IMG/VR virus record: IMGVR_UViG_3300037400_003188
Location: 1-57,013 of that record
DNA length: 57,013 nucleotides
Source: a virus
Lineage: Duplodnaviria > Heunggongvirae > Uroviricota > Caudoviricetes
Reading direction: 5' to 3' (one strand)
Part shown: one piece after another, positions 48-42,569 of the stretch
Layout: every line of letters begins with the position of its first letter
Numbering within the stretch: position 1 is the first letter of the stretch
Position numbers and translations under genes: made by a program
Notes under the pieces: generated by a model
Seen by the model: only the letters and a program-made list of their open reading frames with translations
Databases searched by the model: none
Told to the model about the DNA's origin: nothing

Positions 48-704
48 GTTTATATAGGTCCTTTTTGAAAATATTGAAAATTTTTGGCCAAAATTTTTTT
101 GAGAGTAGGTACTACTTTTTGTAATGCGGGGGGGGGTCTAACAAAAAAATCAAAAAATTCCATGACGGATCACGCAGCAAACAGCCCGCCCCATATTGAT
201 ATAGGCGTAGCCAGGGAATACGTGGGGGAGATTACCGTAGGGGGGTGTCGGGTAGGTGGTACGTAGGTAGGCATAAGGTAGGGGGTTATGGGGGCTATCG
301 TAGGTAGTCCTACTTATCATACAAATCTATTCTTTGCCCATTTATTTGTGTTCTAAGCGCATTAAATTATTCAGCAGATACATTTACTATCTTTACAAAT
401 AAAATCGTTTAAAATCGAAATTATTTATATTAGTTTCATTATGGGTAATATATTATTAATAAACGAAGTTTATCAATGATATTTATATTACCTATAATGT
501 TTTGCTGATAAAATTGCGTTGCGTGTATGTATATGTCCTAAAATAAGAAAAATCTTCACATATAAAAATTTTGGGGCGATTTGCATTTTTTTCTCTAAAA
601 TTTTTATTATTGAAAAAATTATAGTACTTTTGCATCGTGTTTGATTGACAAGCACATTTGTTTTACCTAAAAAGTGTGGTCACACTATAAACGATTTTTG
701 CCTT

Positions 705-1280
705 ATGAACAAAACTATTCTTGCTGCAAGCGACATCATTAACTTTATGTCGAACATTAAGGGTTGCCGTCAAGGTGCAATTCACTACTTTTCTAAACTC
801 GCGTTCCCTAAAAAGAAATACGCGTATGCAGGTATCGTGGGCGAGGTAACCAAGTTCGTTGTTCGGCAGTGCCAATTCAATCGCGACTATGAAAATAGTG
901 TGAACAACCAATTAGTTCGCGAGGGCAAAGACGCAGCATTTGAGAGTGCTGGTCTAAAAGCGGGAGAGCGCTATATGCAAGGTCTTTACCGCAAGGTAAT
1001 CGAGAACACCATAACGGGGCAAAAGTATGTGGTGTGGTATCCTTATGAGGGTGCAAGTGTTAGCACGCAGTACTTTATTGACGGAGTTCCAGCGACTGCT
1101 GAACAAACTGCTATCATAGCAGAGTGGGAGAAAGCAAAGTACGCAAACGAAAAAATCGGCACGCAAGAAGCGGTCGGTGTTGAGAAAAAGGTGCTTTGGC
1201 GCTACACCAAGTTCGAGGGCATTACATACCTTGCGTGTGAGGGAGAGGTGCTAACTTGTGAAACCAAACCTGCCGCATAA
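705..1280 (+). CDS. Hypothetical phage protein (191 aa)
   Basis: Own promoter and terminator; ATG at 705 preferred over TTG at 645. Confidence 0.8.
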   Translation: MNKTILAASDIINFMSNIKGCRQGAIHYFSKLAFPKKKYAYAGIVGEVTKFVVRQCQFNRDYENSVNNQLVREGKDAAFESAGLKAGERYMQGLYRKVIENTITGQKYVVWYPYEGASVSTQYFIDGVPATAEQTAIIAEWEKAKYANEKIGTQEAVGVEKKVLWRYTKFEGITYLACEGEVLTCETKPAA

Positions 1281-1304
1281 CCAAGCGGTAGAGCACACCA
1301 AAGG

Positions 1305-1332
1305 ACAGACTGCAAAAGCGGTCTGTTTTTTT
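1305..1332 (+). terminator. Intrinsic terminator
   Basis: ACAGACTGC-AAAA-GCGGTCTGT then a T run. Confidence 0.8.
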
Positions 1333-1611
1333 GTACCTTTAACTTCACTATATGCCCTAAAATAAACTAATATTTGAATTATAAAAATTTTAGAGAGAAA
1401 TTATCAGTATAATTATGATATTTTTGCAAAATCTTTATTTTAAGAGGTTTTTATCTATTGGGTGGCACATTTATACTGTTTATGGATTTTCGTGTGTTAG
1501 AATTGAAATATGATGAAAAATTATTTTTATTCTCCAAAATTTTTATTATTGAGAATAATGTAGTATCTTTGCATTGTAATTAAAAAGATAACCTATAAAA
1601 CTTTTTAGAAT

Positions 1612-2007
1612 ATGAGCAACAAAGTACAAGAGTTTGCAGTAAAAAACGGAATTACAAACGTATTTCACTATGCAGCAGCAGAAGAAAAATGCGTGTTTGA
1701 GCGTCAGGCAGCAGAGTGTGGGTATGAGCGCAAAACTACTTTCTTCAGTGATTTAAGTATCGCAGAGTGGTATGGTGCAGATAGTGTACGCGACACATAC
1801 AAAAATGTTATGCGTTCGTGGGTAAAAGATGTTGTATATTTCACGGAATTTGTAATGTGTTTAAATTGGAAGATTTGGGAGCATAACGCACGCGGTAATG
1901 ACGAGTTGGCAAAAGTATATGATGAGTTGTGGCGCGAGGCTGATGAGTTGGCTTGCAACACATACAAAGGCGAAGACGCGGACTACTACTACAGCACGAC
2001 CGATTAA
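1612..2007 (+). CDS. Hypothetical protein
   Basis: ORF between promoter and terminator. Confidence 0.8.
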   Translation: MSNKVQEFAVKNGITNVFHYAAAEEKCVFERQAAECGYERKTTFFSDLSIAEWYGADSVRDTYKNVMRSWVKDVVYFTEFVMCLNWKIWEHNARGNDELAKVYDELWREADELACNTYKGEDADYYYSTTD

Positions 2008-2226
2008 GTGAGTAAATGTTATTTTGAATTCTTTCATAGTGGTAGCACTGGCTTGGGAAAGTCGGTGCTATTTTTTTGTGTTTCTCTATCAATATATGCT
2101 CTAAAATAGCAAAGTTTCTCGATAATAAAAATTTTTGGGAGTGATTTTGTTTTTATTCTCGAAAATTTTTATATATGGGAAAAATGTAGTACTTTTGCAT
2201 TGTAATTCAATAAAAAAATAGCAACT

Positions 2227-2631
2227 ATGGCAGTCAAAGTAAAACAAATCACAAACTACAAGGGTCGCTACTGCGCCGAACTTGAAAACGGGCTGTTCGT
2301 TTTAGAAAATGGGTCTATGGGTCTCCTGCTCTGCGAGAAAGTGGATGAGGGAATGAAAGTTATGGAAAGTAACATCTGCTGCGGAATGATGTCCAAGACG
2401 GAAGATGATTTTCGTTGGAACGTCGAGAACGCAAACTATATGACCGATATGTCTCCTTACGGAATGACGATTAAGGATGAGGATGATGACGAACAAGTCA
2501 AAATTTCCGTTACAATTACAAAAGGTCATATCGTGGAGGAACTGCGTAAACTTGCCGACGCGATAGAGGATAACGACTATGAAGAAATTCCTTATTATGA
2601 AACCTACCATTGTGCAGCAGAGTTTCACTAA
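2227..2631 (+). CDS. Hypothetical acidic protein
   Basis: ORF after promoter, ACAACTATG-type start context. Confidence 0.8.
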   Translation: MAVKVKQITNYKGRYCAELENGLFVLENGSMGLLLCEKVDEGMKVMESNICCGMMSKTEDDFRWNVENANYMTDMSPYGMTIKDEDDDEQVKISVTITKGHIVEELRKLADAIEDNDYEEIPYYETYHCAAEFH

Positions 2632-2647
2632 AAAAACTATTACTATT

Positions 2648-2872
2648 ATGGAAATCAAAGCAACTGACATTCGTGTTTGTGAGCAAGGTTTACTCACGCA
2701 CCAACCGATTACAATTTGTGAAAGCGGTGTTTTAATGAAATTCCAAAACGCAAAACCTCGTGACATAACTTTATATGTGGATGGCAATATGTGTATCATC
2801 AAAGAAAATGGTATTAAGACACACATTATAACCGCGCCTTTCAAAATTAAGATAGAGAAAGGTATCGAATAA
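2648..2872 (+). CDS. Hypothetical protein
   Basis: ATG at 2648 follows the previous stop; terminator downstream. Confidence 0.7.
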   Translation: MEIKATDIRVCEQGLLTHQPITICESGVLMKFQNAKPRDITLYVDGNMCIIKENGIKTHIITAPFKIKIEKGIE

Positions 2873-3089
2873 CGTTTATCTAAAAGCGAGATTGAAAGTG
2901 AGGGCAACTTGTTGTCCTCATTTTTTTATGCTTTAAAATTTTTATATGCAGCGGAAAAGTTTATTTTAGGGAATATAGTAAGACGATGAGTGATGATTTA
3001 TTTTTTATTCTCCAAAATTTTTATAATTCAAATAATTGTAGTACTTTTGCATTGTAATTAAAAGTTTAACAAATAAAACTATTAAGATT

Positions 3090-3512
3090 ATGGGTTACAC
3101 ACACTATTGGACATTTAAGAAGAAAGTAAAAGACATTACGAACGGCGAAAGTGGTTTCAAGTACGCCGTTGAGTTATTCAAACGCGGTTTGGAAATCGCC
3201 AGCGACAAACACAATCTCTACTATCCCGATTTGCTCGGTAACGGCGTGGGAGTGGATGAGCCGATTATTGAAGATGACAAACTTATCTTCAACGGTAAGC
3301 GACCCGATGACTATGAGACATTTGCAATCACGACCGAAAGCGAGGGTTTTGACTTTTGCAAGACTGCGAGGTGTCCGTATGATGTATTTGTCTGCCTTGC
3401 CCTGCTCTGCTTTGAGGATGTATTCGGAGACCAAATCGAGGTTAGCAGCGATGGCGATAGAAACAATGATGAGGGTTGGGTTGTTGCAAGGCAAATCTTC
3501 AACGAACTTTAA
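3090..3512 (+). CDS. Conserved phage hypothetical protein (MGYTHYW N-terminus)
   Basis: MGYTHYW start and C-terminal TARxPYD pattern recalled from an uncharacterised phage family. Confidence 0.8.
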   Translation: MGYTHYWTFKKKVKDITNGESGFKYAVELFKRGLEIASDKHNLYYPDLLGNGVGVDEPIIEDDKLIFNGKRPDDYETFAITTESEGFDFCKTARCPYDVFVCLALLCFEDVFGDQIEVSSDGDRNNDEGWVVARQIFNEL

Positions 3513-3696
3513 GAGTGAGGGCATTGCCCTCATTTTTTTTGTGCTTTGCAGGTAGTATATGGCCTAAAATACACGATTCCGTTAATTATAAAAATTTTAG
3601 GGGCGTAAAATTGGGGTACCATATTTTTATTCTCCAAAATTTTTATATTCCAAATAATTATAGTACTTTTGCATTGTAATTAAAAAACTAAACATT

Positions 3697-4074
3697 ATGG
3701 CAAGTGTAAAGAGTTACAAAGGACAACATTTTGAAAGCAGTTGTTGTCGCACCGAGCAATACGCAGAGTTTGAAAGAACCTGCAAGCGCGAACTCAAAAA
3801 GCAATGTGCAAAACTTGGTATCAACATACACAAGTTTTATCCAAACCACTTTGAGTGGTCGGCGGTATTGGAGAAAGGCGGCAAGTTCGTATATGTGTCC
3901 ATGAGTGATGTGCGCTATTGGGATTGGTACAACGATATTCTTATTCGCACAATGGCACACGCAGAAGATTGGCGAGGTGGCAGCAATAATAGTTGTTCGT
4001 TCGACAAGATTGGCGAAATGGCAAATAGATTATTAGGTTTTATTCCTTTGTCGGAATATTTGTCTAACGATTAA
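3697..4074 (+). CDS. Conserved hypothetical protein
   Basis: ORF after promoter; ILIRT...DWRGGSN motif. Confidence 0.8.
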   Translation: MASVKSYKGQHFESSCCRTEQYAEFERTCKRELKKQCAKLGINIHKFYPNHFEWSAVLEKGGKFVYVSMSDVRYWDWYNDILIRTMAHAEDWRGGSNNSCSFDKIGEMANRLLGFIPLSEYLSND

Positions 4075-4232
4075 AATACAAACATTATGTACGAAAGAGA
4101 ATACAATGAAAAAGATTTGAACGAAATCATAGACAAAGGTATGTATGATTGTTATTCGATGTGTGGTATTTGGTAAAAACTTTTTCTCTCCAAAATTTTT
4201 ATAAATGAAAAAATTGTTGTACCTTTGCAATG

Positions 4233-4761
4233 TCAAATTAAAAACGATAAGCATATGAAGAAGAGCTAGGTTTAGCATTAAGCACATGAGCCGTGCAACA
4301 TAAGGGATTGTCGCGGCATGAGTTTTAAAATTAGTTCTTTGGCTTGTTACGCATGAGATGGGCAAATAGATTACACCTCGCGGAGCCATTCAAAATTTAA
4401 GAATTCCAAATTTAAGCAGAATTATGAGGACAAATAAACCTCCGCCCGATTATTAAGGTGGCAACGGAATTAGGCAGTTATTAAATCGCATGAGAGGTTG
4501 GCGAATTATACTCCTTGCGGCTGCCGAGAGACTATAGAAGATTTTATATTAGAATTGTAACCGCCCAAAGGTAGGGCACAAAATAGTGCAAGTGTATGAA
4601 ACATAAGCGCATAAGAGCCGAGACGAAACATTAAGGCATAACAAATAACATTTAGATATAGGATTTAACATTAAAATAAAACGTAGCAAAATCGAGCCGT
4701 AATTCCGTAAGCGGTGAGCAAGTGCAGCGTTATGGGCACACTGACGAGTGTGCTCTTTTTT
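4233..4761 (+). ncRNA. Candidate large structured non-coding RNA (~520 nt), class unidentified
   Basis: Own promoter (TACCTTTG 4220-4227), terminator 4734-4761, no ORF of 60 aa or more, long-range helix 4464-4475/4696-4708, seven CATRAG repeats. Confidence 0.7.
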
Positions 4762-4906
4762 GGTCTATTTTGGTATTATATGCTCTAAAATAAGAAAATC
4801 CGTGAGATATAAAAATTTTAGAGTTGAAAAAAGATTTATCCCCCAAAATTTTTATATATGGAAGAAATGTAGTACTTTTGCATTGTGATTAAAAGAAAGG
4901 GACAAA

Positions 4907-5095
4907 ATGGAAGAGTTGGAATACAAAGGAGATAAAATCGTTAAGTATGGAGAAAACGATTATGTAGGTTTTTACCTTAATGCTGATGATGAGGTAAATA
5001 CTACCTATCATTGTAAGACATTAAAAGAAGCGCAAAAAGCGTTAGACAAGTATAATAAACTTGTGTCTATTATTAAAAATGAGAAAGGAGAATAA
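4907..5095 (+). CDS. Hypothetical protein
   Basis: ORF after promoter, AGAAAGGG upstream. Confidence 0.7.
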   Translation: MEELEYKGDKIVKYGENDYVGFYLNADDEVNTTYHCKTLKEAQKALDKYNKLVSIIKNEKGE

Positions 5096-5099
5096 CACT

Positions 5100-5495
5100 A
5101 TGAAACATTTAATTGAAAAGTTAATTCATCGTCTTTTGCGTAAGTGTCGCAAAAATCAGTTGCGTTATTTGTTTGCTCGTCTATTGGCGGAGATTGTTAA
5201 AGATAAAGAGAGTACAAATCACGTTCTTATATCAATCGCAAGTTACTTTATTAGGTATCACGGCGGAGAGAAATTTCAGTTCAATGACATTTTCGTAGTA
5301 GGTAACATTATCTATATCGACACATTGCGACCTGGCTATTGGATAGGCAAAGGTGGCTCGGAGGCAGATAGACTGCTTTTGGAGTGTAACTACAACACGG
5401 AAATGGAAAAAGTTGCCGATTATCAGTTGAGGTTCATTGAATTGTTAAATGACGCGCAGTCTGACATTGCAACGTATATTCACATAAATTCATAG
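5100..5495 (+). CDS. Putative type II KH-domain (uS3-like) RNA-binding protein
   Basis: IYIDTLRPGYWIGKGGSEADRL resembles the uS3 KH segment IHTARPGxVIGKKGxxIEKL with a GxxG loop. Confidence 0.55.
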   Translation: MKHLIEKLIHRLLRKCRKNQLRYLFARLLAEIVKDKESTNHVLISIASYFIRYHGGEKFQFNDIFVVGNIIYIDTLRPGYWIGKGGSEADRLLLECNYNTEMEKVADYQLRFIELLNDAQSDIATYIHINS

Positions 5496-5741
5496 CATAG
5501 TTATAAGGTTTTGGGTTATACAATTGTTGGTAGCATTGGCTTGTGAAAGTCGGTGCTATTTTTTTGTTCCAAAATTTTTATAATTGAAAGTTTTGTTTAT
5601 TTTAGGAGATATAGGAAGATGATTGCCCTCAAAACCGATAATTGTGTTTTTTATTCTCCAAAATTTTTATAAGTCAAATAATTGTTGTACTTTTGCAGTG
5701 TCAAACTTAAAAAACTAACCAAACAAAAGAAAGGAAACATT

Positions 5742-5846
5742 ATGGAAACTATTAAGAAAAACATTATTTCAATTGTCTTTGTAGGTACTATCATTATTTT
5801 TGTAACTCTTTGTATCACTCTCGCGAACTATTTCTTGTACGCATAA
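5742..5846 (+). CDS. Small membrane peptide (34 aa)
   Basis: After promoter and AGAAAGGA; one hydrophobic segment. Confidence 0.5.
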   Translation: METIKKNIISIVFVGTIIIFVTLCITLANYFLYA

Positions 5847-5866
5847 ATAAGATAGGAGAATAGGTT

Positions 5867-6028
5867 ATGAAAAAGAATAGTTTGAAAACACTTATAGAGT
5901 TTTTCGCTCTTTGTGGGGCAATAGCATTCTTTTGCGGACTTGCTGACCCGTGGGCATTCATTGCTTGTATGATATTCGGTTGTGCAGCCGCAGTAACTAA
6001 ATTGTTTTACAATATAGCAGAAGATTAA
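5867..6028 (+). CDS. Small membrane protein (53 aa)
   Basis: AGGAG upstream; two hydrophobic segments. Confidence 0.5.
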   Translation: MKKNSLKTLIEFFALCGAIAFFCGLADPWAFIACMIFGCAAAVTKLFYNIAED

Positions 6029-6032
6029 AGTT

Positions 6033-6227
6033 ATGGTAGATATAGAATTATTAAGTGTTGGCGACATTGTTAAGGTTGTCGATAGGAAGACGAGTAAGTT
6101 TGCATTCGGTCAAGTATCATTTAAGACAGATAACGGAGTTAGTGTCCGTCTTGGTTTTGACGAGAATTGCATTGTTACCTTATGTGATGATAGGTATTAC
6201 ATAGATTGTCTATTAGAAAAAGTATAA
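6033..6227 (+). CDS. Hypothetical protein
   Basis: Tightly packed ORF, terminator downstream. Confidence 0.65.
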   Translation: MVDIELLSVGDIVKVVDRKTSKFAFGQVSFKTDNGVSVRLGFDENCIVTLCDDRYYIDCLLEKV

Positions 6228-6443
6228 GGAAATAATAGGTTCATAGGGTTTAATGGGTTAATTGGATAGCATTGCGTTGGGAAACGCGGTGCTATTTTTT
6301 TTGTACCTTAAAATTTTTATATATGAAAAGTTTTCTTATTTTAGGACATATAGATATGGGTTATTTTTTTATTCCCAAAAATTTTTATAATTCAAATAAA
6401 AGCAGTACCTTTGTATCGTAATTCAAATAAACACTATAACATT

Positions 6444-7103
6444 ATGGAACAAATCAACAAACAAGAAATTCTCAATGCCGTAGCAAATTATTCACGCGCT
6501 GACATTAACTACGGAGAGTGTACAACAATGGGTGGCATTGTAAACGGACACCGCCAACATATTCACAAGTACTATTGGGTAGAAATTGGGGGCACACGCA
6601 TTCAAGACAATGGAGAGTTCAAAACAATGTTCTCATTCGTGCAAGCATTGCAAAAGCAGTTCGCTGCGATTGAAGAAGAATTGCGCAAAGAGAACGTGAT
6701 TTACGTTAAAGAGAAGAAAGACATTGTATGTGGCACCGACTACGTTTGGCATTGCGACAAATATGCAGAGTTGGAGTGTGTATTGGGACTTGTAAAAATA
6801 GTTCCGTGTGCAGAGTTCAAGGAGTTGCAAGAGTGGTTGAAAGAGAATGCAAACTTTGAGTTGGGTGTAACAGACTTGTACACTTGCGACATTTGCCAAA
6901 AGCGCAGTAGCAAATCGTATAGTAACTTTGAATACACCGCTACACATTTTAGTGTTTGCCAAAGATTGCTCAATGACTTAAAAGCGAAAGGTAAGGTTGT
7001 TGTGGAGATAAAGGAAGATGAAGAGATTGACAATGACCCCTATCGTTATGAGTATGAGCAGTATGGTTATAAGCGAGTGTACTTGTCAGCGACTGCTGCA
7101 TAG
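6444..7103 (+). CDS. Hypothetical protein
   Basis: ATG at 6444 after promoter; ends in TAG. Confidence 0.8.
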   Translation: MEQINKQEILNAVANYSRADINYGECTTMGGIVNGHRQHIHKYYWVEIGGTRIQDNGEFKTMFSFVQALQKQFAAIEEELRKENVIYVKEKKDIVCGTDYVWHCDKYAELECVLGLVKIVPCAEFKELQEWLKENANFELGVTDLYTCDICQKRSSKSYSNFEYTATHFSVCQRLLNDLKAKGKVVVEIKEDEEIDNDPYRYEYEQYGYKRVYLSATAA

Positions 7104-7204
7104 TATATATACTCAAATGAGTACCTATTTATTTCCCTAAAATTTTTATATGTGAAATAATTGTTGTACTTTTGTATCGTTAAACAATTAAAAACAATAA
7201 CACT

Positions 7205-7765
7205 ATGAACTATCAAGTAAAAACTATTGAGAATGGGCGCGGTATTTCGTTGCAATCGTATCAAAATCATTTGTCTTTGTATGAGAGTGATTTGAAAGAT
7301 TTAATCTTCTACAATGAAACGGAAGATACTTTCATCCGCAGAGTAGAGAGTTGGTTATGGGACATCGTTTGTGATGAGTATGACCGCGACAATTTCAAAT
7401 ACAATCAAAGCGACTTGGAGAAATCACTGCGAGTAGTATTCAAGAACTTGTATAAGGACTTTGAGCAGAGCGCAGAGTTTGAAACAAAGAAAGCAGAAAG
7501 ACTTGCCGAATTGGCAAAAGCAGACTTGGAGAAAAAAGTAAATCTTCGCACAATTACCGATTATGTTTGGAAAAAGCAAAACTTTGATAGAAAGTGTTAT
7601 GCTTGGAGTGCTTTCTCTTGCACAAAAGAATACAATGCCTATTGCAAAATGCAAGAATACATAAAAGAACACTTGGCAGAGTTTGCAGAGTTGGGCGAAA
7701 ACGAAAGAAACGAAAAAGGAAACGAGATATACTTGCAAAAGTTGAAAGAGATTAGGGGGTGGTAA
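7205..7765 (+). CDS. Hypothetical protein
   Basis: ORF between promoter and terminator. Confidence 0.8.
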   Translation: MNYQVKTIENGRGISLQSYQNHLSLYESDLKDLIFYNETEDTFIRRVESWLWDIVCDEYDRDNFKYNQSDLEKSLRVVFKNLYKDFEQSAEFETKKAERLAELAKADLEKKVNLRTITDYVWKKQNFDRKCYAWSAFSCTKEYNAYCKMQEYIKEHLAEFAELGENERNEKGNEIYLQKLKEIRGW

Positions 7766-7976
7766 GAATAGTATAGTGGCTATGGTAGCACTGGGTTGAA
7801 AAACTCGGTGCTATTTTTTTTTATACTTAAAATTTTTATAACTGAAAACTTTTTTTATTTTAGGGCATATGATCTTTTTTCAGTTACAAAAGATCTTTTT
7901 GTTTTTTATTTCCCTAAAATTTTTATGTTCTAAATAATTGTAGTACTTTTGCATTGTAATTAAAATAATAACAACT

Positions 7977-8231
7977 ATGGTATCCTATTACATTACAATT
8001 GCTTTTTATAGCGAGCCGAATTATCGAGGAAATTGCAGTATTTATTACCTCAAAGGTATAAAAGGTAACAAAATCTCTTATGGCGGCACAATGTACAAGA
8101 AATTGTATCTACAAAAAAGTGCGGCATTAAAAGCCGCTAAAAAAATAAAAAATGCTTTTACCACCGCAAAAGTTGAGGTAAATGAAATCATTCCGATAAA
8201 CGGAGTATTTAATACAATTGTAATTCAATAA
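7977..8231 (+). CDS. Hypothetical basic protein, paralog of 11382..11603
   Basis: Shared FYSEPN..GN...GNKISYGG. Confidence 0.75.
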   Translation: MVSYYITIAFYSEPNYRGNCSIYYLKGIKGNKISYGGTMYKKLYLQKSAALKAAKKIKNAFTTAKVEVNEIIPINGVFNTIVIQ

Positions 8232-8533
8232 AAAAAGGAGAATAAGAAGAAACTGCAAGCGCGAATTAACGAACTCAAAGGAGAGGGATACGTTGAGCGC
8301 AGAGGTTTAATAGTTGTTCATAGGTTTAGGTTTAAGGGTTGGTAGCACATAGTCGTGAGGATTAGGTGCTACTTTTTTTATTTTTTTTTTGCTTTGCGGG
8401 TACTATATGCCCTAAAATAAACTAATTCTTGGAACATAAAAATTTTAGAGTCAAAAAAAATTATTCCCAAAAATTTTTATATATCAAATAATTATAGTAC
8501 TTTTGCATTGTGAAACTTAAAAACAAGACAACT

Positions 8534-8806
8534 ATGATACTTTCAAAGAAAGACAAAGAGCAACTGCTTGATTGGGGCTACAAGCCCGAAGATATACCTG
8601 TGATTGAGGACGCAATCAACAATGGTATGGAGTTTATTACCTTATTTCCAAATGGCGAAAACCGAAATCATATAACGGCAGAGGGCGCAAAACGACTGCT
8701 TGGCACGAAAGAGTTTTTAAGCGGTGTAAGCCGTTCAACTTTCCACTCATCTGCTATTCGTGAGAACAACAAAAAGCAAGTGTATTTTTACTATAAATGG
8801 TGGTAA
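8534..8806 (+). CDS. Hypothetical protein
   Basis: ACAACTATG start after promoter. Confidence 0.75.
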   Translation: MILSKKDKEQLLDWGYKPEDIPVIEDAINNGMEFITLFPNGENRNHITAEGAKRLLGTKEFLSGVSRSTFHSSAIRENNKKQVYFYYKWW

Positions 8807-8807
8807 A

Positions 8808-8969
8808 ATGAAAAATAAAAACAATGACATATTAGAAGCATTAAAGGCAGCAAGAAAGCAGAGTAGAGAAATGGAGATTGCTCTCTATGGCAAACCTATA
8901 TGCCATGCCAATGTGTATAAGAATAAAAAGAAATACACAAGAAAAAATAAACATAAAAATAACTATTAA
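8808..8969 (+). CDS. Small basic protein (KAARKxSRE...KKKYTRK type)
   Basis: Starts 1 nt after the previous stop; pattern recalled from small Bacteroidales proteins. Confidence 0.65.
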   Translation: MKNKNNDILEALKAARKQSREMEIALYGKPICHANVYKNKKKYTRKNKHKNNY

Positions 8970-8984
8970 AATAAAGGAACAACT

Positions 8985-9197
8985 ATGGCAGCAAAAGTAG
9001 TAAAAACGAGTGGTATTAACGCACCGATTGGTTTAAATCGCTTCAAAATTACGGAAGAAGATTGCGGTGATAAAAAGGAATATCTTATAGAGTGTTCCAG
9101 AAATGGCATATCTTGGTCTGGTATCGGAGAATTAAGTCTTTGCGACCTTGCGGAATTATCATATATTCTACGCGAGGTTGTAGGTGGGGCAAAGTAG
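8985..9197 (+). CDS. Hypothetical protein
   Basis: AAAGGA plus ACAACTATG start. Confidence 0.7.
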   Translation: MAAKVVKTSGINAPIGLNRFKITEEDCGDKKEYLIECSRNGISWSGIGELSLCDLAELSYILREVVGGAK

Positions 9198-9217
9198 CAA
9201 AAGAAAGGAGAAATAAT

Positions 9218-9532
9218 ATGAATATGTTAGAATTATTACCAAAGTGCATTGACTATAAGGGAGATAGTTTTTTCCTCCAAGTATGTGTAACCGTGTGTGG
9301 CAGACTTGCGGTATGTTACAAACAACTTGCTGGAGATAAGAAAATCTTATCTTATGTAGTTGAGAAAGAAAAGGAAAAGTACATTCCAAATATCATTGAG
9401 GAAACCGAAACAAGCGGCTTAAATGAGCACATTGGCAATTGCAAAACTCTTGATGAGTGTATCACGGCAATGATATACAAAATCAACGAGATGACTTTGA
9501 GTGGAGAGATGAGGGCAAGTTACGGCGGTTAA
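9218..9532 (+). CDS. Hypothetical protein
   Basis: AGAAAGGAG 7 nt upstream of ATG 9218. Confidence 0.7.
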   Translation: MNMLELLPKCIDYKGDSFFLQVCVTVCGRLAVCYKQLAGDKKILSYVVEKEKEKYIPNIIEETETSGLNEHIGNCKTLDECITAMIYKINEMTLSGEMRASYGG

Positions 9533-9731
9533 GTTTTCATAGTGTTTAGTGGGTGCTGGTTGCAGAAATGCAGCCAGCATTTTTTATGCTCTAAAATTTT
9601 TATAGCCGAAGTTTTTTCTTATTTTAGGACATATAGTTCCAGAAATGTGATTTGTATTTTTTATTCCCCAAAATTTTTATATGTTAAAGAAATGTAGTAC
9701 TTTTGTATCGTAATTAAAAAACTACACAACT

Positions 9732-10010
9732 ATGGCAAATAAAATTTATCTTTGGAGTGCGCACGAAAAAAATAATTGTCTAAAACATTCTTATTGTTAT
9801 GCGCGCAAGGAGTACACAACCGAGCAGGTTGCAAGCATACTGAAAGAAAGTGATAAATTCAAAGATTGCACAGAACCGATTGTGGTTCGTCCAATTGCTG
9901 AACACGAAATTGCAGGTGTATGCGCCTATCAGCGTGTAATAAACTTGCAGCCGAGCGAAGACGAAATGTGGCTTGTGCGTAAATTGATTAACAAAAGTAA
10001 AAATTTATAA
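9732..10010 (+). CDS. Hypothetical protein
   Basis: ORF after promoter. Confidence 0.7.
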   Translation: MANKIYLWSAHEKNNCLKHSYCYARKEYTTEQVASILKESDKFKDCTEPIVVRPIAEHEIAGVCAYQRVINLQPSEDEMWLVRKLINKSKNL

Positions 10011-10014
10011 AAAT

Positions 10015-10188
10015 ATGACACGAATTATTGAAACCTCTTATGGCGAGGTAAAAGTAGAAACTACCAACGAAAAGGGTTATTTAGATTGCTACATTGGCGA
10101 CAACTATGATGACTATGTAGGCACTATCGAGGGCACTATCGGTATGAGTGAGGTAACTCTTTGCAAACGAGTAGAAAACATTTTATAA
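10015..10188 (+). CDS. Small acidic protein (57 aa)
   Basis: Fills the gap between packed genes. Confidence 0.55.
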   Translation: MTRIIETSYGEVKVETTNEKGYLDCYIGDNYDDYVGTIEGTIGMSEVTLCKRVENIL

Positions 10189-10209
10189 CACTAAAAACAC
10201 TATAACACT

Positions 10210-10689
10210 ATGGAGAAAGTAAGTTTAAAAGAATTGTATCAGCGTTTTACTGCTGACAAAAAAGGAACACAAAAGTTATTCATCACGCACGAGAGTTTTT
10301 ATGGTGCTCGTGATTGTGAGATTTGCCAAATAAAAGATATTGCACCGAACCCACGAAAGGCAGAAGCAATACGCACTCACGATGAGTACGAAGATTATGT
10401 GCCCGATTTTAATTTTGAGGTAGTAAACCCAAATGACAAAAAGGACATTGCCTCTTGGGACGGACACGCAGGTTATTATTGGTATGTATCAACCGACATA
10501 AACGAGTTAAAAGCACTCAATGATAAGCGATTAGAGGACTATTATATTAAAGAGGTAGGTCGCTCTATGGAGAGAATTGCAGTTCCACGAATTAAAGTAG
10601 TAGGCGAAAGAACCGCACACCTAAACGAATTGATTAGTGAATTTAGGACTACGATTGAAAAGATTACGAACTACACAAATGCAGCATAA
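10210..10689 (+). CDS. Hypothetical protein
   Basis: ACACTATG start; packed operon. Confidence 0.8.
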   Translation: MEKVSLKELYQRFTADKKGTQKLFITHESFYGARDCEICQIKDIAPNPRKAEAIRTHDEYEDYVPDFNFEVVNPNDKKDIASWDGHAGYYWYVSTDINELKALNDKRLEDYYIKEVGRSMERIAVPRIKVVGERTAHLNELISEFRTTIEKITNYTNAA

Positions 10690-10691
10690 CT

Positions 10692-11081
10692 ATGGCAAAG
10701 AAAGTTATTGGGTATCAAATTACAAATCGAAATCAAGACATTCCAAATAGTTTGTTTAGTTTCCAAATTTTCAAGACCGAAGAACAAGCATTTGAGTATG
10801 CAAGAGAACACGGAGTAGTGTTCGATTGGGACAAAGGTTGGTTTGTTCGACAAGTTCGCGAGGGCGACATTGAAAACCCCACATATATCGGTGGTGAAAA
10901 GAAAATTTATAACGTAACATTTTATTATCAAACCAAATTGACGGTGAGTGTAGAGGCAGAGAGTGAGAAAGAGGCGATTGCACTTGCGGATTTGGAGAGC
11001 GAGAAAGAGTGTTACAAACAAAACTTGCTTAACGGCTTGCGTGAAAGCCATTATCCATACGTTGAGTTAGATGAGGAGTAA
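10692..11081 (+). CDS. Hypothetical protein
   Basis: Packed operon; terminator-like hairpin downstream. Confidence 0.75.
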   Translation: MAKKVIGYQITNRNQDIPNSLFSFQIFKTEEQAFEYAREHGVVFDWDKGWFVRQVREGDIENPTYIGGEKKIYNVTFYYQTKLTVSVEAESEKEAIALADLESEKECYKQNLLNGLRESHYPYVELDEE

Positions 11082-11381
11082 ATCAAAAATTCGGCAGTAA
11101 GTAAAATTATTGCCGTTTTTTTGTGCCTTTATAGAACTATATACCATAAAATAAACAATTCCGTGAATAATAAAAATTTTGGAGTATAATTTTGTTTTTT
11201 TTCCCTAAAATTTGTATAATTCAATTTTTTTCTTTTATTTGGCCATATATATATGCGCATACACTTTTTCAAATGAATAATGGTATGATGATTACATTTT
11301 TTTGAACGAATTATTCCCTAAAATTTTTATATATCAAATCTTTTTAGTATCTTTGCAGCGTAATTCAAAACAAATAAAATT

Positions 11382-11603
11382 ATGAACACTTATTCTATTG
11401 CAATTGATTTTTATAGCGAGCCGAATTTTTGTGGAAATATGAGCCGTTATTGGTTCAAATCAAAACGTGGTAATAAAATATCTTATGGCGGTTTCTTATT
11501 TGCCAAGCGGTATTTATCTTTGGCTTGTGCAAACAAAATGGCTAAACGTTTGGCTGAAATACCAATGTTCAAAACTGCTAACATTAGTGTAGTAAATCGT
11601 TAA
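11382..11603 (+). CDS. Hypothetical basic protein, paralog of 7977..8231
   Basis: Shared FYSEPN and GNKISYGG motifs. Confidence 0.75.
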   Translation: MNTYSIAIDFYSEPNFCGNMSRYWFKSKRGNKISYGGFLFAKRYLSLACANKMAKRLAEIPMFKTANISVVNR

Positions 11604-11616
11604 ATCAAATAAAACT

Positions 11617-11871
11617 ATGGCAAATGAACTTTGGGGTGCAAAAACCCGTAGTACGAAATGGGTGTTAGAACACCTTTCGAGAAAAGACTTAAAGGAGTTA
11701 AGAGAACACATTAAGCAAATCAATCTGATTGCTAAAAATAGCGGTATGTGGGACTTTCAACGCACAGGTTTCTTTAAGCAAACCTACAAAATGGAAGATA
11801 CACTAATAGAAGCAATAGATGACAATGTGTATGAGAAAAAACTTGAAAAATCATTAGGGCATAAACTATGA
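11617..11871 (+). CDS. Hypothetical protein
   Basis: Packed operon. Confidence 0.7.
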   Translation: MANELWGAKTRSTKWVLEHLSRKDLKELREHIKQINLIAKNSGMWDFQRTGFFKQTYKMEDTLIEAIDDNVYEKKLEKSLGHKL

Positions 11872-12263
11872 AACCTATTAAATTATACAAAGTAGAGGTT
11901 GGCGTCTTGTTAAAGAAAGACAATCACGATTACGAAAGTTATTCGCAAGCCTACGACAAGCAGCACGGCTATTATGACGAAAACGTGGCATTTTTCCGCA
12001 ATAAGAAGAACGCAAAGGAATACCTTAAAAACTACGTGTTCTTTGGTGTAGTTGGCACGTATGGCATTTTGAGTGAGTTGGTGTATAACCAAAATGAGAT
12101 TGGCTACACCGATGAAGATACAAAACGTATTCTTAAAGACATTGATGAGTGTGGTATCTTTGATGATTATATAGACATTTTCGGAGAAGATTTGTATGAC
12201 ACCAAAAACGTGATTTTCACGCACTACAAGAAAAGCCAAAAAGTATTCAAAAAAATCTTTTAA
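11868..12263 (+). CDS. Hypothetical protein
   Basis: ATGA overlap with the previous gene. Confidence 0.75.
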   Translation: MKPIKLYKVEVGVLLKKDNHDYESYSQAYDKQHGYYDENVAFFRNKKNAKEYLKNYVFFGVVGTYGILSELVYNQNEIGYTDEDTKRILKDIDECGIFDDYIDIFGEDLYDTKNVIFTHYKKSQKVFKKIF

Positions 12264-12265
12264 TT

Positions 12266-12655
12266 ATGGCAAAGAAACTTTATAAAGACATTGAGAAAGT
12301 ATTCGTATCACCTTACGGCAGTTGTACGATTAGTCGTTTAGATTACGAAGATTTAATAATACCGATGATTGCAGAGGAGTTAAGCGATGAGCAAATGCAA
12401 AAGTTGGTAGATGAAATAAATCTCTCTATGCGCAGCGATTATAGCGATGAGGAGTTAGGCTGGCTACAAAAGTACCGAGATTTGGGCGCAGAGAACGGAT
12501 TGACACCAGAGCAGTTGAACTTTGCCGACAAGATGAGCGAGATTGAGTTCATGTATTTTGAAACTTGTGCAAGAAAATTCGGTATGCGTTATTGGGAAGA
12601 TTTAGATGAAGATGAATACAACGAACTCCAAAAAGAATTGGAATACGCAGCATAG
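12266..12655 (+). CDS. Hypothetical acidic protein
   Basis: Packed operon, terminator downstream. Confidence 0.75.
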   Translation: MAKKLYKDIEKVFVSPYGSCTISRLDYEDLIIPMIAEELSDEQMQKLVDEINLSMRSDYSDEELGWLQKYRDLGAENGLTPEQLNFADKMSEIEFMYFETCARKFGMRYWEDLDEDEYNELQKELEYAA

Positions 12656-12865
12656 TGTTTAATGTTTAATAGTTAGTGGTGGCACTGGGTGAAAACTCAG
12701 TGCTATTTTTTTGTTCTCTAAAATTTTTATAACTGAAGATTTTTCTTATTTTAGGACATATAGTAGGCTGTAAACTTTTTTTCTCCAAAATTTTTATAAT
12801 CCAAAGAAAAGCAGTATCTTTGCAGCAGATTTGATTAACCAACTAAAATAGAAAGGAACACTATT

Positions 12866-13129
12866 ATGACTATCGAAACAAAATTTAATCTTGGCGATGT
12901 TGTTTACTTATTAAAAGGAGAAAAAGTACACAATGCCCAAATCATCAAAATCAATGTACAATTTGGCAATCAAATAGATTGTGTGAATAATAAGCAATGC
13001 AATGGCTTTACGCGCACGACACCAACGCAATATGTATCTTATCGTATTAAATACCAGAGCGGTGGAGAAGAAGAATTTGGCGAAGAAAGATTTTTCAAAA
13101 CAAAGGAAGAATTATTAAAATCACTCTAA
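12866..13129 (+). CDS. Conserved phage hypothetical protein (ETKFNLGDxV N-terminus)
   Basis: After promoter and AGAAAGGA. Confidence 0.75.
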   Translation: MTIETKFNLGDVVYLLKGEKVHNAQIIKINVQFGNQIDCVNNKQCNGFTRTTPTQYVSYRIKYQSGGEEEFGEERFFKTKEELLKSL

Positions 13130-13152
13130 CTAAAATAGAAAGGAAAACAACT

Positions 13153-13509
13153 ATGACAATTAACGAAATGCGTAAACTGATTGAGCAAGCGGCAGCCATT
13201 AGCAACGACATTAAGGCAGCCGTAAAAGAGTGTCTGGTAAAGTTGGGTGCAACGGATGAGGAACACGGAATTGTGTTTGATTGGGAAGACGGAAGTGCGC
13301 CAAGCATTTGTAGTCTGCAATTTGGCGATGACGTAGCCGACAGTTATGTTACCAAAATCTGGTATGACAAAGGTTTAATTAAAGTAAATCTCCACGCTTA
13401 TTATGTAGGCGATGACCGAGAGAACATTGACTTGGCAAGTGAGTGTAATGTAGATTATGAAGATATTCTTGACTATCTTGCTTGTGAGTTAGAGGAGAGA
13501 GGTCTGTAA
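13153..13509 (+). CDS. Hypothetical acidic protein
   Basis: AGAAAGGA plus ACAACTATG. Confidence 0.75.
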   Translation: MTINEMRKLIEQAAAISNDIKAAVKECLVKLGATDEEHGIVFDWEDGSAPSICSLQFGDDVADSYVTKIWYDKGLIKVNLHAYYVGDDRENIDLASECNVDYEDILDYLACELEERGL

Positions 13510-13614
13510 CAATATAGGTACTCGATTGAGTACCTATCTACAAAGAGATTGCATTTTATTTCCCCAAAATTTTTATAATTGAAAAAAATATAGTACTTTT
13601 GCAGCAGAAATTGA

Positions 13615-13702
13615 AAAGGAGATTGAGTAGGCATTAACGATGAACCCTGCGCATTGGCTGAAAGACTGAATACAAAGCGGGTTGAGTATTCTACACCTTT
13701 TT
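13615..13702 (+). ncRNA. Candidate structured leader or small RNA (~85 nt)
   Basis: Directly after promoter; AAAAGG/CCTTTT, GTAG/CTAC and AACCCTGC/GCGGGTT pairings. Confidence 0.4.
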
Positions 13703-13745
13703 AATATATAACATTATTAACAATTAAATAAGAAAGGGAAAAATT

Positions 13746-14351
13746 ATGAGCACACGTAGTAACATTTACCTTAAACTCAAAGATAAGAGTAAGGGAAAAA
13801 CAATTAAATTCAATTTTTCTAAACTCCCGCGAGGAAACGGAGAACGGCACGCAGAATTGGAATTTCCGATTAACGATGTAACAATTCCACAAGACGCGGA
13901 GTATATCGGTGTATATCATCATTGGGATGGCTATATCACAGGCGTAGGAAAAACCCTGCTGGAGAGTTACACCGATTATGGCACAATTCTCAATCTGCTT
14001 ATTATGGGCGATATTAGTACCATAAATGGGGGTGTTATCTCTTATCAAGGTTGGCGCAACGAAGACACACCGCCGCAGTTCATCAATAAATCGACTAAGT
14101 TCGGTCATTGGATTTGGAACGAGGAAAAACAATGCGGAGAGGTCAAAAAGTTTGAAATGTGCAACGCAGAGGGCGAGTTAGACCCGAAAGCAGCAGTATG
14201 CGAGGAATACGCATATCTCTTTGACGGAAAGAAATGGTGGGTGTCGTACTACACTTATGACAATAACGACAAGCGTGTCGATACTGGGTGGCTTGACCTA
14301 AAAGAGGAACTTGCTAAATGGGAAGAGCGAGAGAATAAGGCAAACGCATAA
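13746..14351 (+). CDS. Conserved phage hypothetical protein (STRS...YxHWDGY family)
   Basis: MSTRS start, YHHWDGY and EEYAYLF motifs. Confidence 0.8.
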   Translation: MSTRSNIYLKLKDKSKGKTIKFNFSKLPRGNGERHAELEFPINDVTIPQDAEYIGVYHHWDGYITGVGKTLLESYTDYGTILNLLIMGDISTINGGVISYQGWRNEDTPPQFINKSTKFGHWIWNEEKQCGEVKKFEMCNAEGELDPKAAVCEEYAYLFDGKKWWVSYYTYDNNDKRVDTGWLDLKEELAKWEERENKANA

Positions 14352-22059: not shown

Positions 22060-23091
22060 ATGACACAACTTGAAAGACTTGCACAAAACATTCTCTTCGG
22101 CTATAATGGCGAAGATATGCAAAAGGTAATTACTACTATTACTAATGGTGGCGTAGTAGGCGTAGAAACGATTATTCGCTGGAAAGACAGCGGAGAAATC
22201 TGCCAACGAGATATTGCTATAAGCAAACACGAAACAACCGAAGACTTTTGGTTCGATGAGGACTTTTTGTTCAATGTGAATGACGTACCTCAATTCCTCT
22301 CATTGCTTGCTAATCTTGATTTTATCAATGGTGAGTTCGACAATGAGGAACAATGGTTAGAGGAAATCCACAAATATGAGGGAGAGGACAAAGATGACTA
22401 TTTTCATAGCGGAGAGGACTTTGATATTATCGACGTTATTGGTAAATACTTTATTGAACCCGACCAATTTGATGAGCCGATGATTGGCACGAAAGAGGTC
22501 GTAGAGGGTGGAGTAAAATATACACCTGACCATACTGACCAAGGTTATGTCTTTAAGGACTTAAATGCTATCAAAAAGAAAGAGGGTATCTGCTATATTG
22601 CAGAGTGTGGTTTTGAAGACAATGAAGAAGGCACATTGTTACTGACGCCCGATAATACTTGGGAACATATCTACACAGGGGCAGTAGTAACTTATGAGAG
22701 CGCAAGACAGCAAGTGAAAGATTTAGTCAATGACCGCTTCCCTAAATTCCGTGTAGCAAATTTCACCAATCTAAATAACGATTTATTCTATGAATTTGTT
22801 GAGAAGATTACGGACTATATTCTTCAAGAGGTAGATTGGCAATGCTTCAGTACTATGCTGAACGAAATGGACTTGGAAGAGGAGTTGGATTATTTCCTCC
22901 AAGATAAGTTCGCAGAGTTCGCAAAGAAGAGATTTGAAGAAGACGGAGATGACACAGAGTACGCGGACAATGAGGATTTGTTCGATAAGTTGTCTAATTA
23001 TCTCGGACACTACTGCTATCGTAATGATGACTATTCCCTGACAGATTGGGACAGCCTGATTGATAGGTGGGAGAACGAGCCGAACTATTAA
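22060..23091 (+). CDS. Highly acidic hypothetical protein (343 aa)
   Basis: Long ORF after promoter; D/E-rich throughout. Confidence 0.85.
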   Translation: MTQLERLAQNILFGYNGEDMQKVITTITNGGVVGVETIIRWKDSGEICQRDIAISKHETTEDFWFDEDFLFNVNDVPQFLSLLANLDFINGEFDNEEQWLEEIHKYEGEDKDDYFHSGEDFDIIDVIGKYFIEPDQFDEPMIGTKEVVEGGVKYTPDHTDQGYVFKDLNAIKKKEGICYIAECGFEDNEEGTLLLTPDNTWEHIYTGAVVTYESARQQVKDLVNDRFPKFRVANFTNLNNDLFYEFVEKITDYILQEVDWQCFSTMLNEMDLEEELDYFLQDKFAEFAKKRFEEDGDDTEYADNEDLFDKLSNYLGHYCYRNDDYSLTDWDSLIDRWENEPNY

Positions 23092-35051: not shown

Positions 35052-36083
35052 TTACCCTTCTTTTGTTTCGTCTTTGCAGCCACAATCATCGTTATTGATT
35101 TCATTTGGATCAGCAAAATATACACCTAATGTTTTTACTATAGACAGTATTTGATCTGCAATGCTTTCGCCTATATTAAAATTCCTGCGTATATTGATAC
35201 TTTCTGTACAAGATTTTATGGCATATTTAGTGCGTTTCTCGTACAGGGAAACATTGACTGAATTATTATCAATAAATTCGAAGATCAGGGCAAATCCAAT
35301 GCCTTCTGTTTTATCTATACCTCCTTGTTCGGTGTCAACCACAAATCCATAAGTATCAACGACATTTGGTATTACTGTAATATACGATTTAGGCTCGTCT
35401 CTTAATCCTTTAACATTGCGATAACATCCGTCAGTAGTTTCTATGATATATTTAGAAACATTATTAATTATATTACCGACTCTTTCTTCAAAAATACTTT
35501 GTTCCAGATATGCAGGTGATATATGTATTTCTTTTGATAAGCAATAGTTATTACTGATATTACATATATTTAGTTTGTCAAAGTCTATTACCCAATTTTT
35601 TGCTTCTCCTCTGTCTATTATCTTTACTGGAATATAGTCTTTTGTTAGATCGGTTACATCGTATATATCATCATAGATACCTATTCTTTTGCAATATTTA
35701 GGGCCGTCGTGATGATATGCTGTAAATGTTCCCTTGTTTTTATCATAATTAACGGCAAATGAAGATAGACAGTTACCTGGGAACGTAGTATCATCTGATA
35801 CACCATCGAATAGGAACCATGAGATTGTATCGTTTACCTCATAGAAAGGTTTCGCGTCTTTTTCGCTGTATTTTTTATTTCCATAGCATCCTATTAGTGG
35901 GGTAAATCCATTGTTTAGAAAATGTTCAATAATTTTCTCTTCTGTAGTATACTTAAATCTACTGTCATAACTGTTAGTGTTTTCTTTCAGCCATGATGTT
36001 AGGCTGCGTCGTTTTAATTCAACAACAATGTTGTCATTAATGAGCCATTCTCTTGCTCCTGGTTTTTGAATTTTGTAACTCAT
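35052..36083 (-). CDS. Hypothetical protein (343 aa)
   Basis: Long ORF. Confidence 0.85.
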   Translation of the reverse strand: MSYKIQKPGAREWLINDNIVVELKRRSLTSWLKENTNSYDSRFKYTTEEKIIEHFLNNGFTPLIGCYGNKKYSEKDAKPFYEVNDTISWFLFDGVSDDTTFPGNCLSSFAVNYDKNKGTFTAYHHDGPKYCKRIGIYDDIYDVTDLTKDYIPVKIIDRGEAKNWVIDFDKLNICNISNNYCLSKEIHISPAYLEQSIFEERVGNIINNVSKYIIETTDGCYRNVKGLRDEPKSYITVIPNVVDTYGFVVDTEQGGIDKTEGIGFALIFEFIDNNSVNVSLYEKRTKYAIKSCTESINIRRNFNIGESIADQILSIVKTLGVYFADPNEINNDDCGCKDETKEG

Positions 36084-41399: not shown

Positions 41400-42569
41400 T
41401 CAACTTTTAGTTATTTTCAAATCATGGAAGCATTGTTCAATTTCTATTGTATCTCCCATCACTTTGCCAGCATCGTCGCTAACCTTGATACAGTTAACCC
41501 ACTGACGGTTTGCATTCATTCGGCACTTCATCAACTTCATTACGATATTTTGACTTGGTGTTCCAGTATCGCATGTAAGATTTGTACCGATACCTGCAGA
41601 ACATTTAATCTTACCTTCACAATAATCTGCAATTTCCTTGTACTTCGGGAACGTTAATGCGTTGGAGAATACGATGGTTTTTGTCTTTGGATCAACACCA
41701 AGTTTCTTATATGCGTCTATCGTCATTTGAACAAATTCGTATTCATCTCCAGAATCGTGACGGACGCCATCAAATAACTTTGCTTGTTTGAGACTGAACG
41801 TATCAAAGAATGCTTTACTCCCGTAAGTGTCTGTTAACGCTACCCCTAATGCGCCCTGATATACATCAACCCAATCCTCATAAGATTTATAGTTAGCATT
41901 ACGATAGCCGAATTGAGCACCATGGAACATAATCCACTCATGAGCAACAGTACCGATTGGTTTCATGTTGTATTTCATTGCTAAGTGTACGTTACTTGTA
42001 CCCACACAGTAGTTCGAAGATTCTTTCAATCGTCTAACAACCGCATCTTGTACTGCATAACTAAAACGACGTCGTGTTCCAAATTCACTGAAGACAAGAT
42101 GATTCTCATTCGACAATTTAATCTTCTCGTCAAGCCGATTAAGCACATCGCTCATACTGATAACGTGTACGCTATTAGCTACCTCAGATACAATTGCTAA
42201 GCATGCAATCTCCCATAGCGTAAGGCGATATAGTTTATCCTGAACAGTAATGTGGAGAACCTTATTATCGTCAAGCCAAACATTTACCAAAGAAGGATCA
42301 AATCGGAATCCACGAAGCCACTCCCAGTAGAACTGTGGAATATATGGGATATGTGTTATACACCACTCATACTCATCCTCTGTAAGTTGCAATTCATACA
42401 AACGATCAAGTTCGCTTCGGATTTTACCTAACTCAGCCTGTGTGCGTTTTACTTTGTTACGGTCACAGAATTCAAACTCGCCCTCTGCTTCTGGGTAGAG
42501 GCGCATGTATGCATAACTCATTGAGAGTTTATACAAATCTGTATCAAGTATACTTTTAATAAGTGCCAT
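41400..42569 (-). CDS. pncB: Nicotinate phosphoribosyltransferase
   Basis: LDTDLYKLSM, EFGTRRRFS, GTSNV, GTVAHEW, ALTDT, GVRHDSG, GIGTNLT. Confidence 0.95.
   Translation of the reverse strand: MALIKSILDTDLYKLSMSYAYMRLYPEAEGEFEFCDRNKVKRTQAELGKIRSELDRLYELQLTEDEYEWCITHIPYIPQFYWEWLRGFRFDPSLVNVWLDDNKVLHITVQDKLYRLTLWEIACLAIVSEVANSVHVISMSDVLNRLDEKIKLSNENHLVFSEFGTRRRFSYAVQDAVVRRLKESSNYCVGTSNVHLAMKYNMKPIGTVAHEWIMFHGAQFGYRNANYKSYEDWVDVYQGALGVALTDTYGSKAFFDTFSLKQAKLFDGVRHDSGDEYEFVQMTIDAYKKLGVDPKTKTIVFSNALTFPKYKEIADYCEGKIKCSAGIGTNLTCDTGTPSQNIVMKLMKCRMNANRQWVNCIKVSDDAGKVMGDTIEIEQCFHDLKITKS

Follow-up and report, generated by a model that had tools for sequence, protein, structure and literature searches.

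Conserved few-codon reading frames in an early cassette of Bacteroidota jumbo phages: a candidate array of translated minigenes

Organization of the locus

The window, i.e. the whole stretch of 57,013 nucleotides that was analysed, comes from a linear virus record of 121 kb, of which it makes up the initial 57 kb; the completeness of the record is estimated at 32%. Among sequencing runs, the best match is a metagenome of bovine gut, possibly the source; the runs listed as containing the element included no RNA run, which has no bearing on its expression. The element under study lies on the + strand, between a promoter and an intrinsic terminator (Table 1). The family promoter put forward by the original prediction is present and is one of 30 + strand copies, found from 597 to 30213, most of which then lead into small genes. 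Its TAnnTTTG ending matches what we take, from Bacteroides promoters, to be the Bacteroidota-type −7 box, and transcription would start near 4233. The terminator, a hairpin followed by T6, was likewise confirmed, and the idea that the region occupies a cassette slot like a gene is borne out, the region being a predicted self-contained early transcription unit. Its neighbours are small cassettes of the early host-takeover type; the flanking proteins were without PHROG assignment.

The region had also been described as free of ORFs of 60 aa or more. This holds for the + strand but not for the minus strand, where a 118-aa ORF (4033-4389) overlaps the promoter and the 5' insert. That ORF was rejected as a gene, being broken into 51 and 39 aa in L043 and L173 (homologous loci are designated here by L numbers and genomes by G numbers). 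Nor is the region devoid of ORFs altogether, since conserved frames of 4-12 codons lie inside it.

Table 1 Features of the element in the window (positions in the window)
Feature	Position	Strand	Remarks
Phage family promoter	4190-4230 (motif at 4192-4227; −7 box TACCTTTG at 4220-4227)	+	TAnnTTTG-type −7 box
Minigene F1, MKKS-stop	4255-4269	+	Shortened form of the MKKxxW-stop of relatives; first-gene position of the cassette
Lineage-specific 5' insert, four CAURAG copies	4270-4400	+	Among the arrays read, confined to those of the window, L043 and L173
F2 initiation region, A/U-rich	4401-4423	+	Conserved with L179, L181, L191
Minigene F2, MRTNKPPPDY-stop	4424-4456	+	Universal core M-x-x-N-K-P-P-P; weak hairpin, GCC(C)/GG, spanning the stop
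Hairpin common to L191	4487-4519	+	ATG frame not conserved (ATG-TGA in L191); start context poor
42-nt conserved module with hairpin GCCC-loop-GGGC (4563-4577)	4541-4582	+	No start codon
Minigene F3, ending I-R-A-E-T-K-H-stop	4596-4634	+	Family I/A/V/T-R-x-x-T/P-(x0-2)-stop; CATAAG at 4602 and 4610 as codons
Intrinsic terminator	4734-4761	+	Hairpin and T run

The ATG of F1 lies 28 nt past the −7 box (median 31 for the phage genes) and its start context is at the 96th percentile of background ATGs; in the relatives, F1 (MKKxxW) has a GAAAGGAG ribosome-binding site. F2 consists of M-x-x-N-K-P-P-P followed by 0-4 residues, with an S-P-T variant in one lineage. The start context of F3 is moderate (63rd percentile in the window).

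Several other features of the window were recorded. A 45-60-bp element stands between terminator and promoter in many cassettes and in both orientations (window 500-14000; e.g. 4777-4826, 530-579 and 6298-6360). On the minus strand are encoded a nicotinate phosphoribosyltransferase (41400-42569), an Fe-S enzyme of the radical-SAM type (46216-47175) and an RtcB tRNA ligase (50477-51820). Two ORFs of equal length (343 aa) on opposite strands, 22060-23091 and 35052-36083, proved unrelated (E = 0.31).

CAURAG repeats and RNA folding

The original prediction was of a structured non-coding RNA carrying seven CAURAG repeats and a long-range helix. All seven CATRAG copies were found in place, against a mean of 0.43 in dinucleotide-shuffled sequences, and seven were reached in 0 of 2000 shuffles, the motif having been picked post hoc. 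Nowhere else in the 121-kb record do at least three copies occur per 500 nt. The element of the window holds 7 copies, those of its two closest relatives 4 and 3, and each of 15 further arrays 0-1. The CATAAG copies at 4602 and 4610 are the His-Lys and Ile-Arg codons of the F3 frame, and the segment 4279-4308 is a duplicate, now decayed, of the F3 end, 4604-4638 (alignment score 30; reached in 0 of 500 shuffles). The ATGs of the 5' insert have a poor start context. ORFs opening at the CAUGAG ATGs (4286, 4318, 4353 and 4490) were tried as genes and rejected, their start contexts lying at the 3rd-29th percentile and their start or frame being lost in the relatives.

The claimed hairpin GCAC-ATGAGCC-GTGC can form (4282-4296) and exposes one CAURAG in its loop. 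For the long-range pairing between 4464-4475 and 4696-4708, the complementarity exists but is not significant: its perfect core is 9 bp long, and at least 9 bp were obtained in 184 of 500 shuffles (37%). Neither arm was found in any of 17 other arrays. Moreover, contigs of two sequencing runs from other studies carry 6 letters in place of 4453-4634, and a contig of a third run, from another study, carries 33 letters in place of 4448-4541, so that these internal replacements remove the 5' arm of the claimed helix. Scans with patterns taken from the helix arm, from the hairpin with CAUGAG and from that at 4563 returned unrelated matches or none.

Folding compared with shuffled sequences gave z = −1.12 with the terminator and −0.38 without it, and z ranged from −2.7 to +1.6 over eight arrays. 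The Rfam search that had been recommended gave, for the window and ten homolog loci and tRNAs aside, no match at the gathering score, only chance E-values above 1. As for covariation, extensive covarying structure was not found, while the single small hairpin at 4563-4577 shows one compensatory change (in L160) and has a longer stem in L179/L181.

A large structured ncRNA of the ROOL/GOLLD kind, or a CsrB-like sponge built on CAURAG, is thus largely refuted and very improbable. Seven CATRAG copies, one of them in a hairpin loop, are far above chance, but the helix and the CAURAG cluster are lost beyond the closest relatives, there is neither a global folding signal nor an Rfam match, and arrays differ in length, between about 200 and 560 nt, through gain and loss of modules. 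The original prediction had itself named a set of small translated ORFs as the finding that would speak against it, and comparative genomics points to such a set. The feature is real, but it was misread as a structured ncRNA.

Conservation of the minigenes in homologous arrays

Homolog loci were gathered first via the flanking proteins and then via DNA patterns, and about 20 distinct arrays were read, in Bacteroidota jumbo phages of 24-38% GC. Their sources are rumen-type and pig-gut assemblies as well as phages of 215-380 kb from the IMG/VR set 3300045988, which is presumably human gut. Three array-bearing genomes have proteins at a median of ~40% identity to each other. The arrays are modular, with tiny reading frames and the non-coding hairpin 4563-4577 as their common modules; each of them ends in a hairpin with a T run or at the next cassette, and some come after a protein gene.

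Five F2 relatives (L043, L044, L156, L160 and L173) were obtained by synteny and are therefore free of pattern bias. Among these, the first Pro occurs in all four codons and the Lys in both, and the start always stands 3 codons before the Asn. Most other F2 matches were retrieved with patterns that fix the peptide, and they document spread, not selection. The F3/F4 motif, never used as a query, was found in 12 of the 18 arrays tested and in L270 and L271 (14/20), at a shuffle frequency of 0-2%, its regular expression having been set after the data were seen. Within it, synonymous codons are exchanged for Arg (AGA/CGT/CGA), Ile (ATA/ATT) and Thr (ACG/ACC/ACT). Six arrays lack F3 by deletion.

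The distance from the −7 box to the first minigene is 26-30 nt in 8 of 10 arrays, as for normal genes (median 31). The starts of F1 and F2 have gene-like contexts: values above the 90th percentile of the background were obtained for 71% of F1 and 45% of F2 starts, compared to 7% of other ATGs. Two copies of F2 are present in some arrays, namely L181, L191 and L215/L217.

The cassette layout and the conservation, at the peptide level, of M-x-x-N-K-P-P-P and of x-R-x-x-T/P near the stop are established by sequence comparison. These data make it very probable that the element is an array of translated minigenes. The arrays would be, with a fair chance, a new class of phage gene. A non-functional relic of decayed genes is scarcely credible: parts are eroded or deleted in L043, L156 and L190, but the 8-codon motif has been kept across phages of ~40% protein identity and very different GC.

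The F2 pattern had no match among 400 other Bacteroidales genomes. In 185,579 species genomes the sole credible match (L204) is a phage-like contig in a MAG named Onthovivens (L204/L215/L217, G002:C118), which carries two minigene arrays 7 kb apart and is probably mis-binned phage DNA; L203 was discarded as an F2 homolog, as it looks like a chance terminator hairpin. BLAST against GenBank phages gave no match for the window element or for the L225 array.

Other arrays presented features of their own. Minigenes of 3-4 codons (MRK, MRKK or MRY, then stop), which have the classical drop-off length, close the arrays behind a GGAGGACAAA/GGGACAAA ribosome-binding site in L044 (6397-6408 region), L160, L156, L190 and L192. 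In L172 (7990-8900), F2 is preceded by a tandem duplication of ~59 nt and followed by GC-rich non-coding DNA that leads into an intron-containing tRNA-Ile-like gene. In L048 and L177 phage cassette genes adjoin host-like genes (translation GTPase, ribosome recycling factor), by chimeric assembly or integration.

Codon choice, tRNAs and rescue genes

All 15 distinct F2 cores, including those from scans with the third positions left free, have CCG as the second Pro codon; the third is nearly always CCC, while the first drifts. Similarly, a Pro or Thr codon ending in G or C closes 16 of 17 distinct F3/F4 motifs, these copies being related and representing about six lineages. Usage of CCG+CCC is 5-15% and that of ACG+ACC 8-26% in the phages, compared to 43% and 39% in a Bacteroidales sample that stands in for the true host. 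The only phage-encoded isoacceptors for these residues are tRNA-Pro(UGG) and tRNA-Thr(UGU). Relative to expectation, PP dipeptides reach 0.64 in the proteomes of three phages and 0.84 in a Bacteroidales sample, again a stand-in for the host (z = −2.1), which is a modest depletion. Minigenes of the F1 type (...W-stop) and MRK-stop minigenes consist of codons readable by the phage tRNAs.

The CCGCCC of F2 can pair with a GG(G) situated 4-12 nt downstream, and the same core is found in the non-coding hairpin 4563-4577. Since it pairs downstream and recurs out of frame, the codon constraint on F2 may be partly exerted at the RNA level.

Beyond the window, the 121-kb record contains 29 tRNA genes. 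Rescue genes accompany the arrays in some genomes, with Pth2 in G004/G006 and tmRNA in G001; Pth1, an RF-1-domain protein, EF-P and ThiF were not found in five phage records, two of them near-complete and the window's own 32% complete. G001 (L276-L291), a 317-kb phage, encodes a tmRNA of its own as well as a tRNA whose anticodon is CUA (156892-157262 and 154846-154923). Alternative genetic codes with TAG or TGA read-through were considered and rejected, the coding density not being notably raised, TAG in G001 included.

Proposed mechanism and alternative explanations

In all the minigene families, a Pro or Thr near the stop is preceded, three positions earlier, by a basic residue (K-P-P-P, R-x-x-P or R-x-x-T). 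Translation of PPP requires EF-P, and in a ribosome paused at PPP the second and third Pro codons of F2 would lie in the P and A sites. In E. coli, termination stalls at Pro-stop and at WILFxxT-stop, and bacterial C-termini are depleted in Thr (PMC7246954). Peptidyl-tRNA can drop off when its chain is shorter than about 7 residues, and the bar minigenes of lambda starve cells of tRNA (PMC8012679). R-x-x-P cores also define the RAPP-type arrest peptides (PMC12992588). The UGG isoacceptor of E. coli reads all four Pro codons (PMC12856214).

Considering these properties, the transcript would be an early, promoter-driven polycistronic mRNA whose payload is the conserved minigenes. Host ribosomes would initiate on the minigene frames and, at a nascent chain of 5-8 residues, in the range of peptidyl-tRNA drop-off, would come to a pause on PPP, Pro-stop or xxT-stop. 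Such pausing would tie up ribosomes, EF-P and the tRNAs for CCG/CCC/ACG/ACC. As the phage rarely uses these codons and carries only tRNA-Pro(UGG) and tRNA-Thr(UGU), host mRNAs would be hit harder than phage mRNAs, and translation in early infection would tilt to the phage. The retention of the motifs in distant giant gut phages suggests a deliberate tie-up of the host translation machinery, and the element probably acts in trans on host machinery, in line with the trans-acting roles of the original prediction. A stall or sink for ribosomes, EF-P or host tRNA-Pro/Thr is the mechanism that we tentatively favour. It is also favoured by the scarcity of PP pairs in the phage proteomes and by the Pth2 and tmRNA genes of array-bearing phages. 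Several observations qualify it: many copies have 1-4 residues past PPP or xxT and are therefore not pure termination stalls, and the Trp- and Lys-ending minigenes fit selective tRNA depletion poorly. Further points against it are the reading of all Pro codons by the UGG isoacceptor in E. coli, the possible RNA-level constraint on the F2 codons, the moderate start context of F3 and its loss from six arrays, and the small size of the PP depletion.

It is unlikely that the minigenes are ordinary tiny genes whose released peptides (fM-x-x-NKPPP and ..IRxxT) target some host or phage protein in trans; candidates are the ribosome tunnel, as for proline-rich antimicrobial peptides, a protease or a defence sensor. 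Conservation at the peptide level, the invariant N-terminal length of F2 with its variable C-terminus and the doubling of F2 are in line with released peptides. Nevertheless, released peptides would not account for the Thr/Pro codons that end in G/C in genomes of 24% GC, nor for the fixed CCG-CCC; a peptide of 7-10 residues usually has a short life, and a maturase of the MccB/ThiF type was not found in the five records, two of which are near-complete.

Rather unlikely, too, is that the RNA is the agent, with repeated A-rich and CCGCCC mini-hairpins binding a protein or RNA as a sponge or decoy and with frames that merely recruit ribosomes to protect or unfold it, which is the originally predicted sponge with another motif. 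This would agree with the occurrence of CCGCCC both in and out of frame, with the compensatory change and the longer stems of the 4563-4577 hairpin, and with the tails of F2, all 24 of which can pair with CCGCCC. The F2 hairpins are, however, of 3-5 bp and mostly no better than in shuffled tails, the AT-rich lineages L217, L221 and L225 keep the F3/F4 peptide without a hairpin, an AGA/CGT swap preserves Arg, and there is no global folding signal.

We consider it improbable that the array serves as a counter-defence decoy, i.e. a ribosome-loaded RNA, present in large amounts, that would soak up rescue factors, toxins dependent on the ribosome or defences that sense tRNAs or stalling, host translation as such not being the aim. 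Its position among host-takeover-type cassettes, in a phage carrying RtcB and at least 29 tRNAs, speaks in favour of a decoy; against it, no target could be identified, and the F2 minigene is absent from the 400 Bacteroidales genomes searched.

Returning to stalling on the minigenes, these polycistronic RNAs may possibly constitute an undescribed class of early genes in Bacteroidota jumbo phages, which sequesters EF-P or specific tRNA isoacceptors through stall motifs and host-type codons. A literature search found no description of such minigene arrays, and the Jug-phage paper mentions neither non-coding regions nor small ORFs (PMC12880540). A conserved 8-codon gene family in jumbo phages of the rumen, the pig gut and probably the human gut offers a small and testable handle on the role of the tRNA sets, Pth and tmRNA of large phages and on their redirection of host ribosomes. 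If the stalling is true, selection would have put minigene toxicity to a natural use in these arrays, with new stall motifs (x-R-x-x-T), and translation takeover or counter-defence would be achieved through the act of translation, not via a protein or a folded RNA. More generally, phage cassettes that seem non-coding can hide genes far under the thresholds of gene callers.

Comparison with known systems

In their action, the arrays would come closest to toxic minigenes and stall peptides. With the CsrB/RsmZ sponges, ROOL and GOLLD they share their own promoter and terminator, a short motif repeated in one lineage and a length of 300-550 nt, but they conserve reading frames and not a motif or a fold. 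The conservation of a loop motif among homologs that characterizes CsrB-type RNAs was not observed, CATRAG being frequent in one lineage, and neither were the Rfam match and the extensive covarying structure expected of ROOL or GOLLD.

F2 of the window resembles mccA of microcin C, a 7-codon ORF, as a very short ORF starting with M-R-T; it differs in that a C-terminal Asn is not conserved and that ThiF/MccB is absent from the five records, the window's own being 32% complete. The relatives of F1, MKKxxW and MKKIWW, resemble Trp leader peptides (Bacteroid-trp RNA, trpL). Unlike these amino-acid attenuators, they have no Rfam match and no biosynthetic operon is regulated downstream.

The basic residue three positions before Pro or Thr, at the end of a short ORF, recalls the RAPP/RGPP/RAGP arrest peptides (SecM, ApdA, ApdP and ApcA; PMC12992588) and the stall motifs PPP, Pro-stop and WILFxxT-stop (PMC7246954). 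However, an exact RAPP/RGPP/RAGP/RAPG core is absent, the cores being KPPP, RxxT and RxxP variants. Moreover, peptides as short as these cannot fill the exit tunnel, and no regulated gene follows the minigenes, as the unit closes with a terminator.

The lambda bar and synthetic toxic minigenes (PMC8012679, PMC2490762) are likewise few-codon frames from start to stop, phage-encoded in the case of bar, for which drop-off and tRNA starvation were proposed. Whereas bar has two codons (Met-Ile) and is toxic in Pth-deficient cells, the arrays combine several frames of 4-18 codons, with conserved motifs and a dedicated promoter-terminator unit, in many phages, and drop-off is here a proposal. As in toxic minigenes, these very short ORFs appear to possess a functional initiation region and to lie on a transcribed unit.
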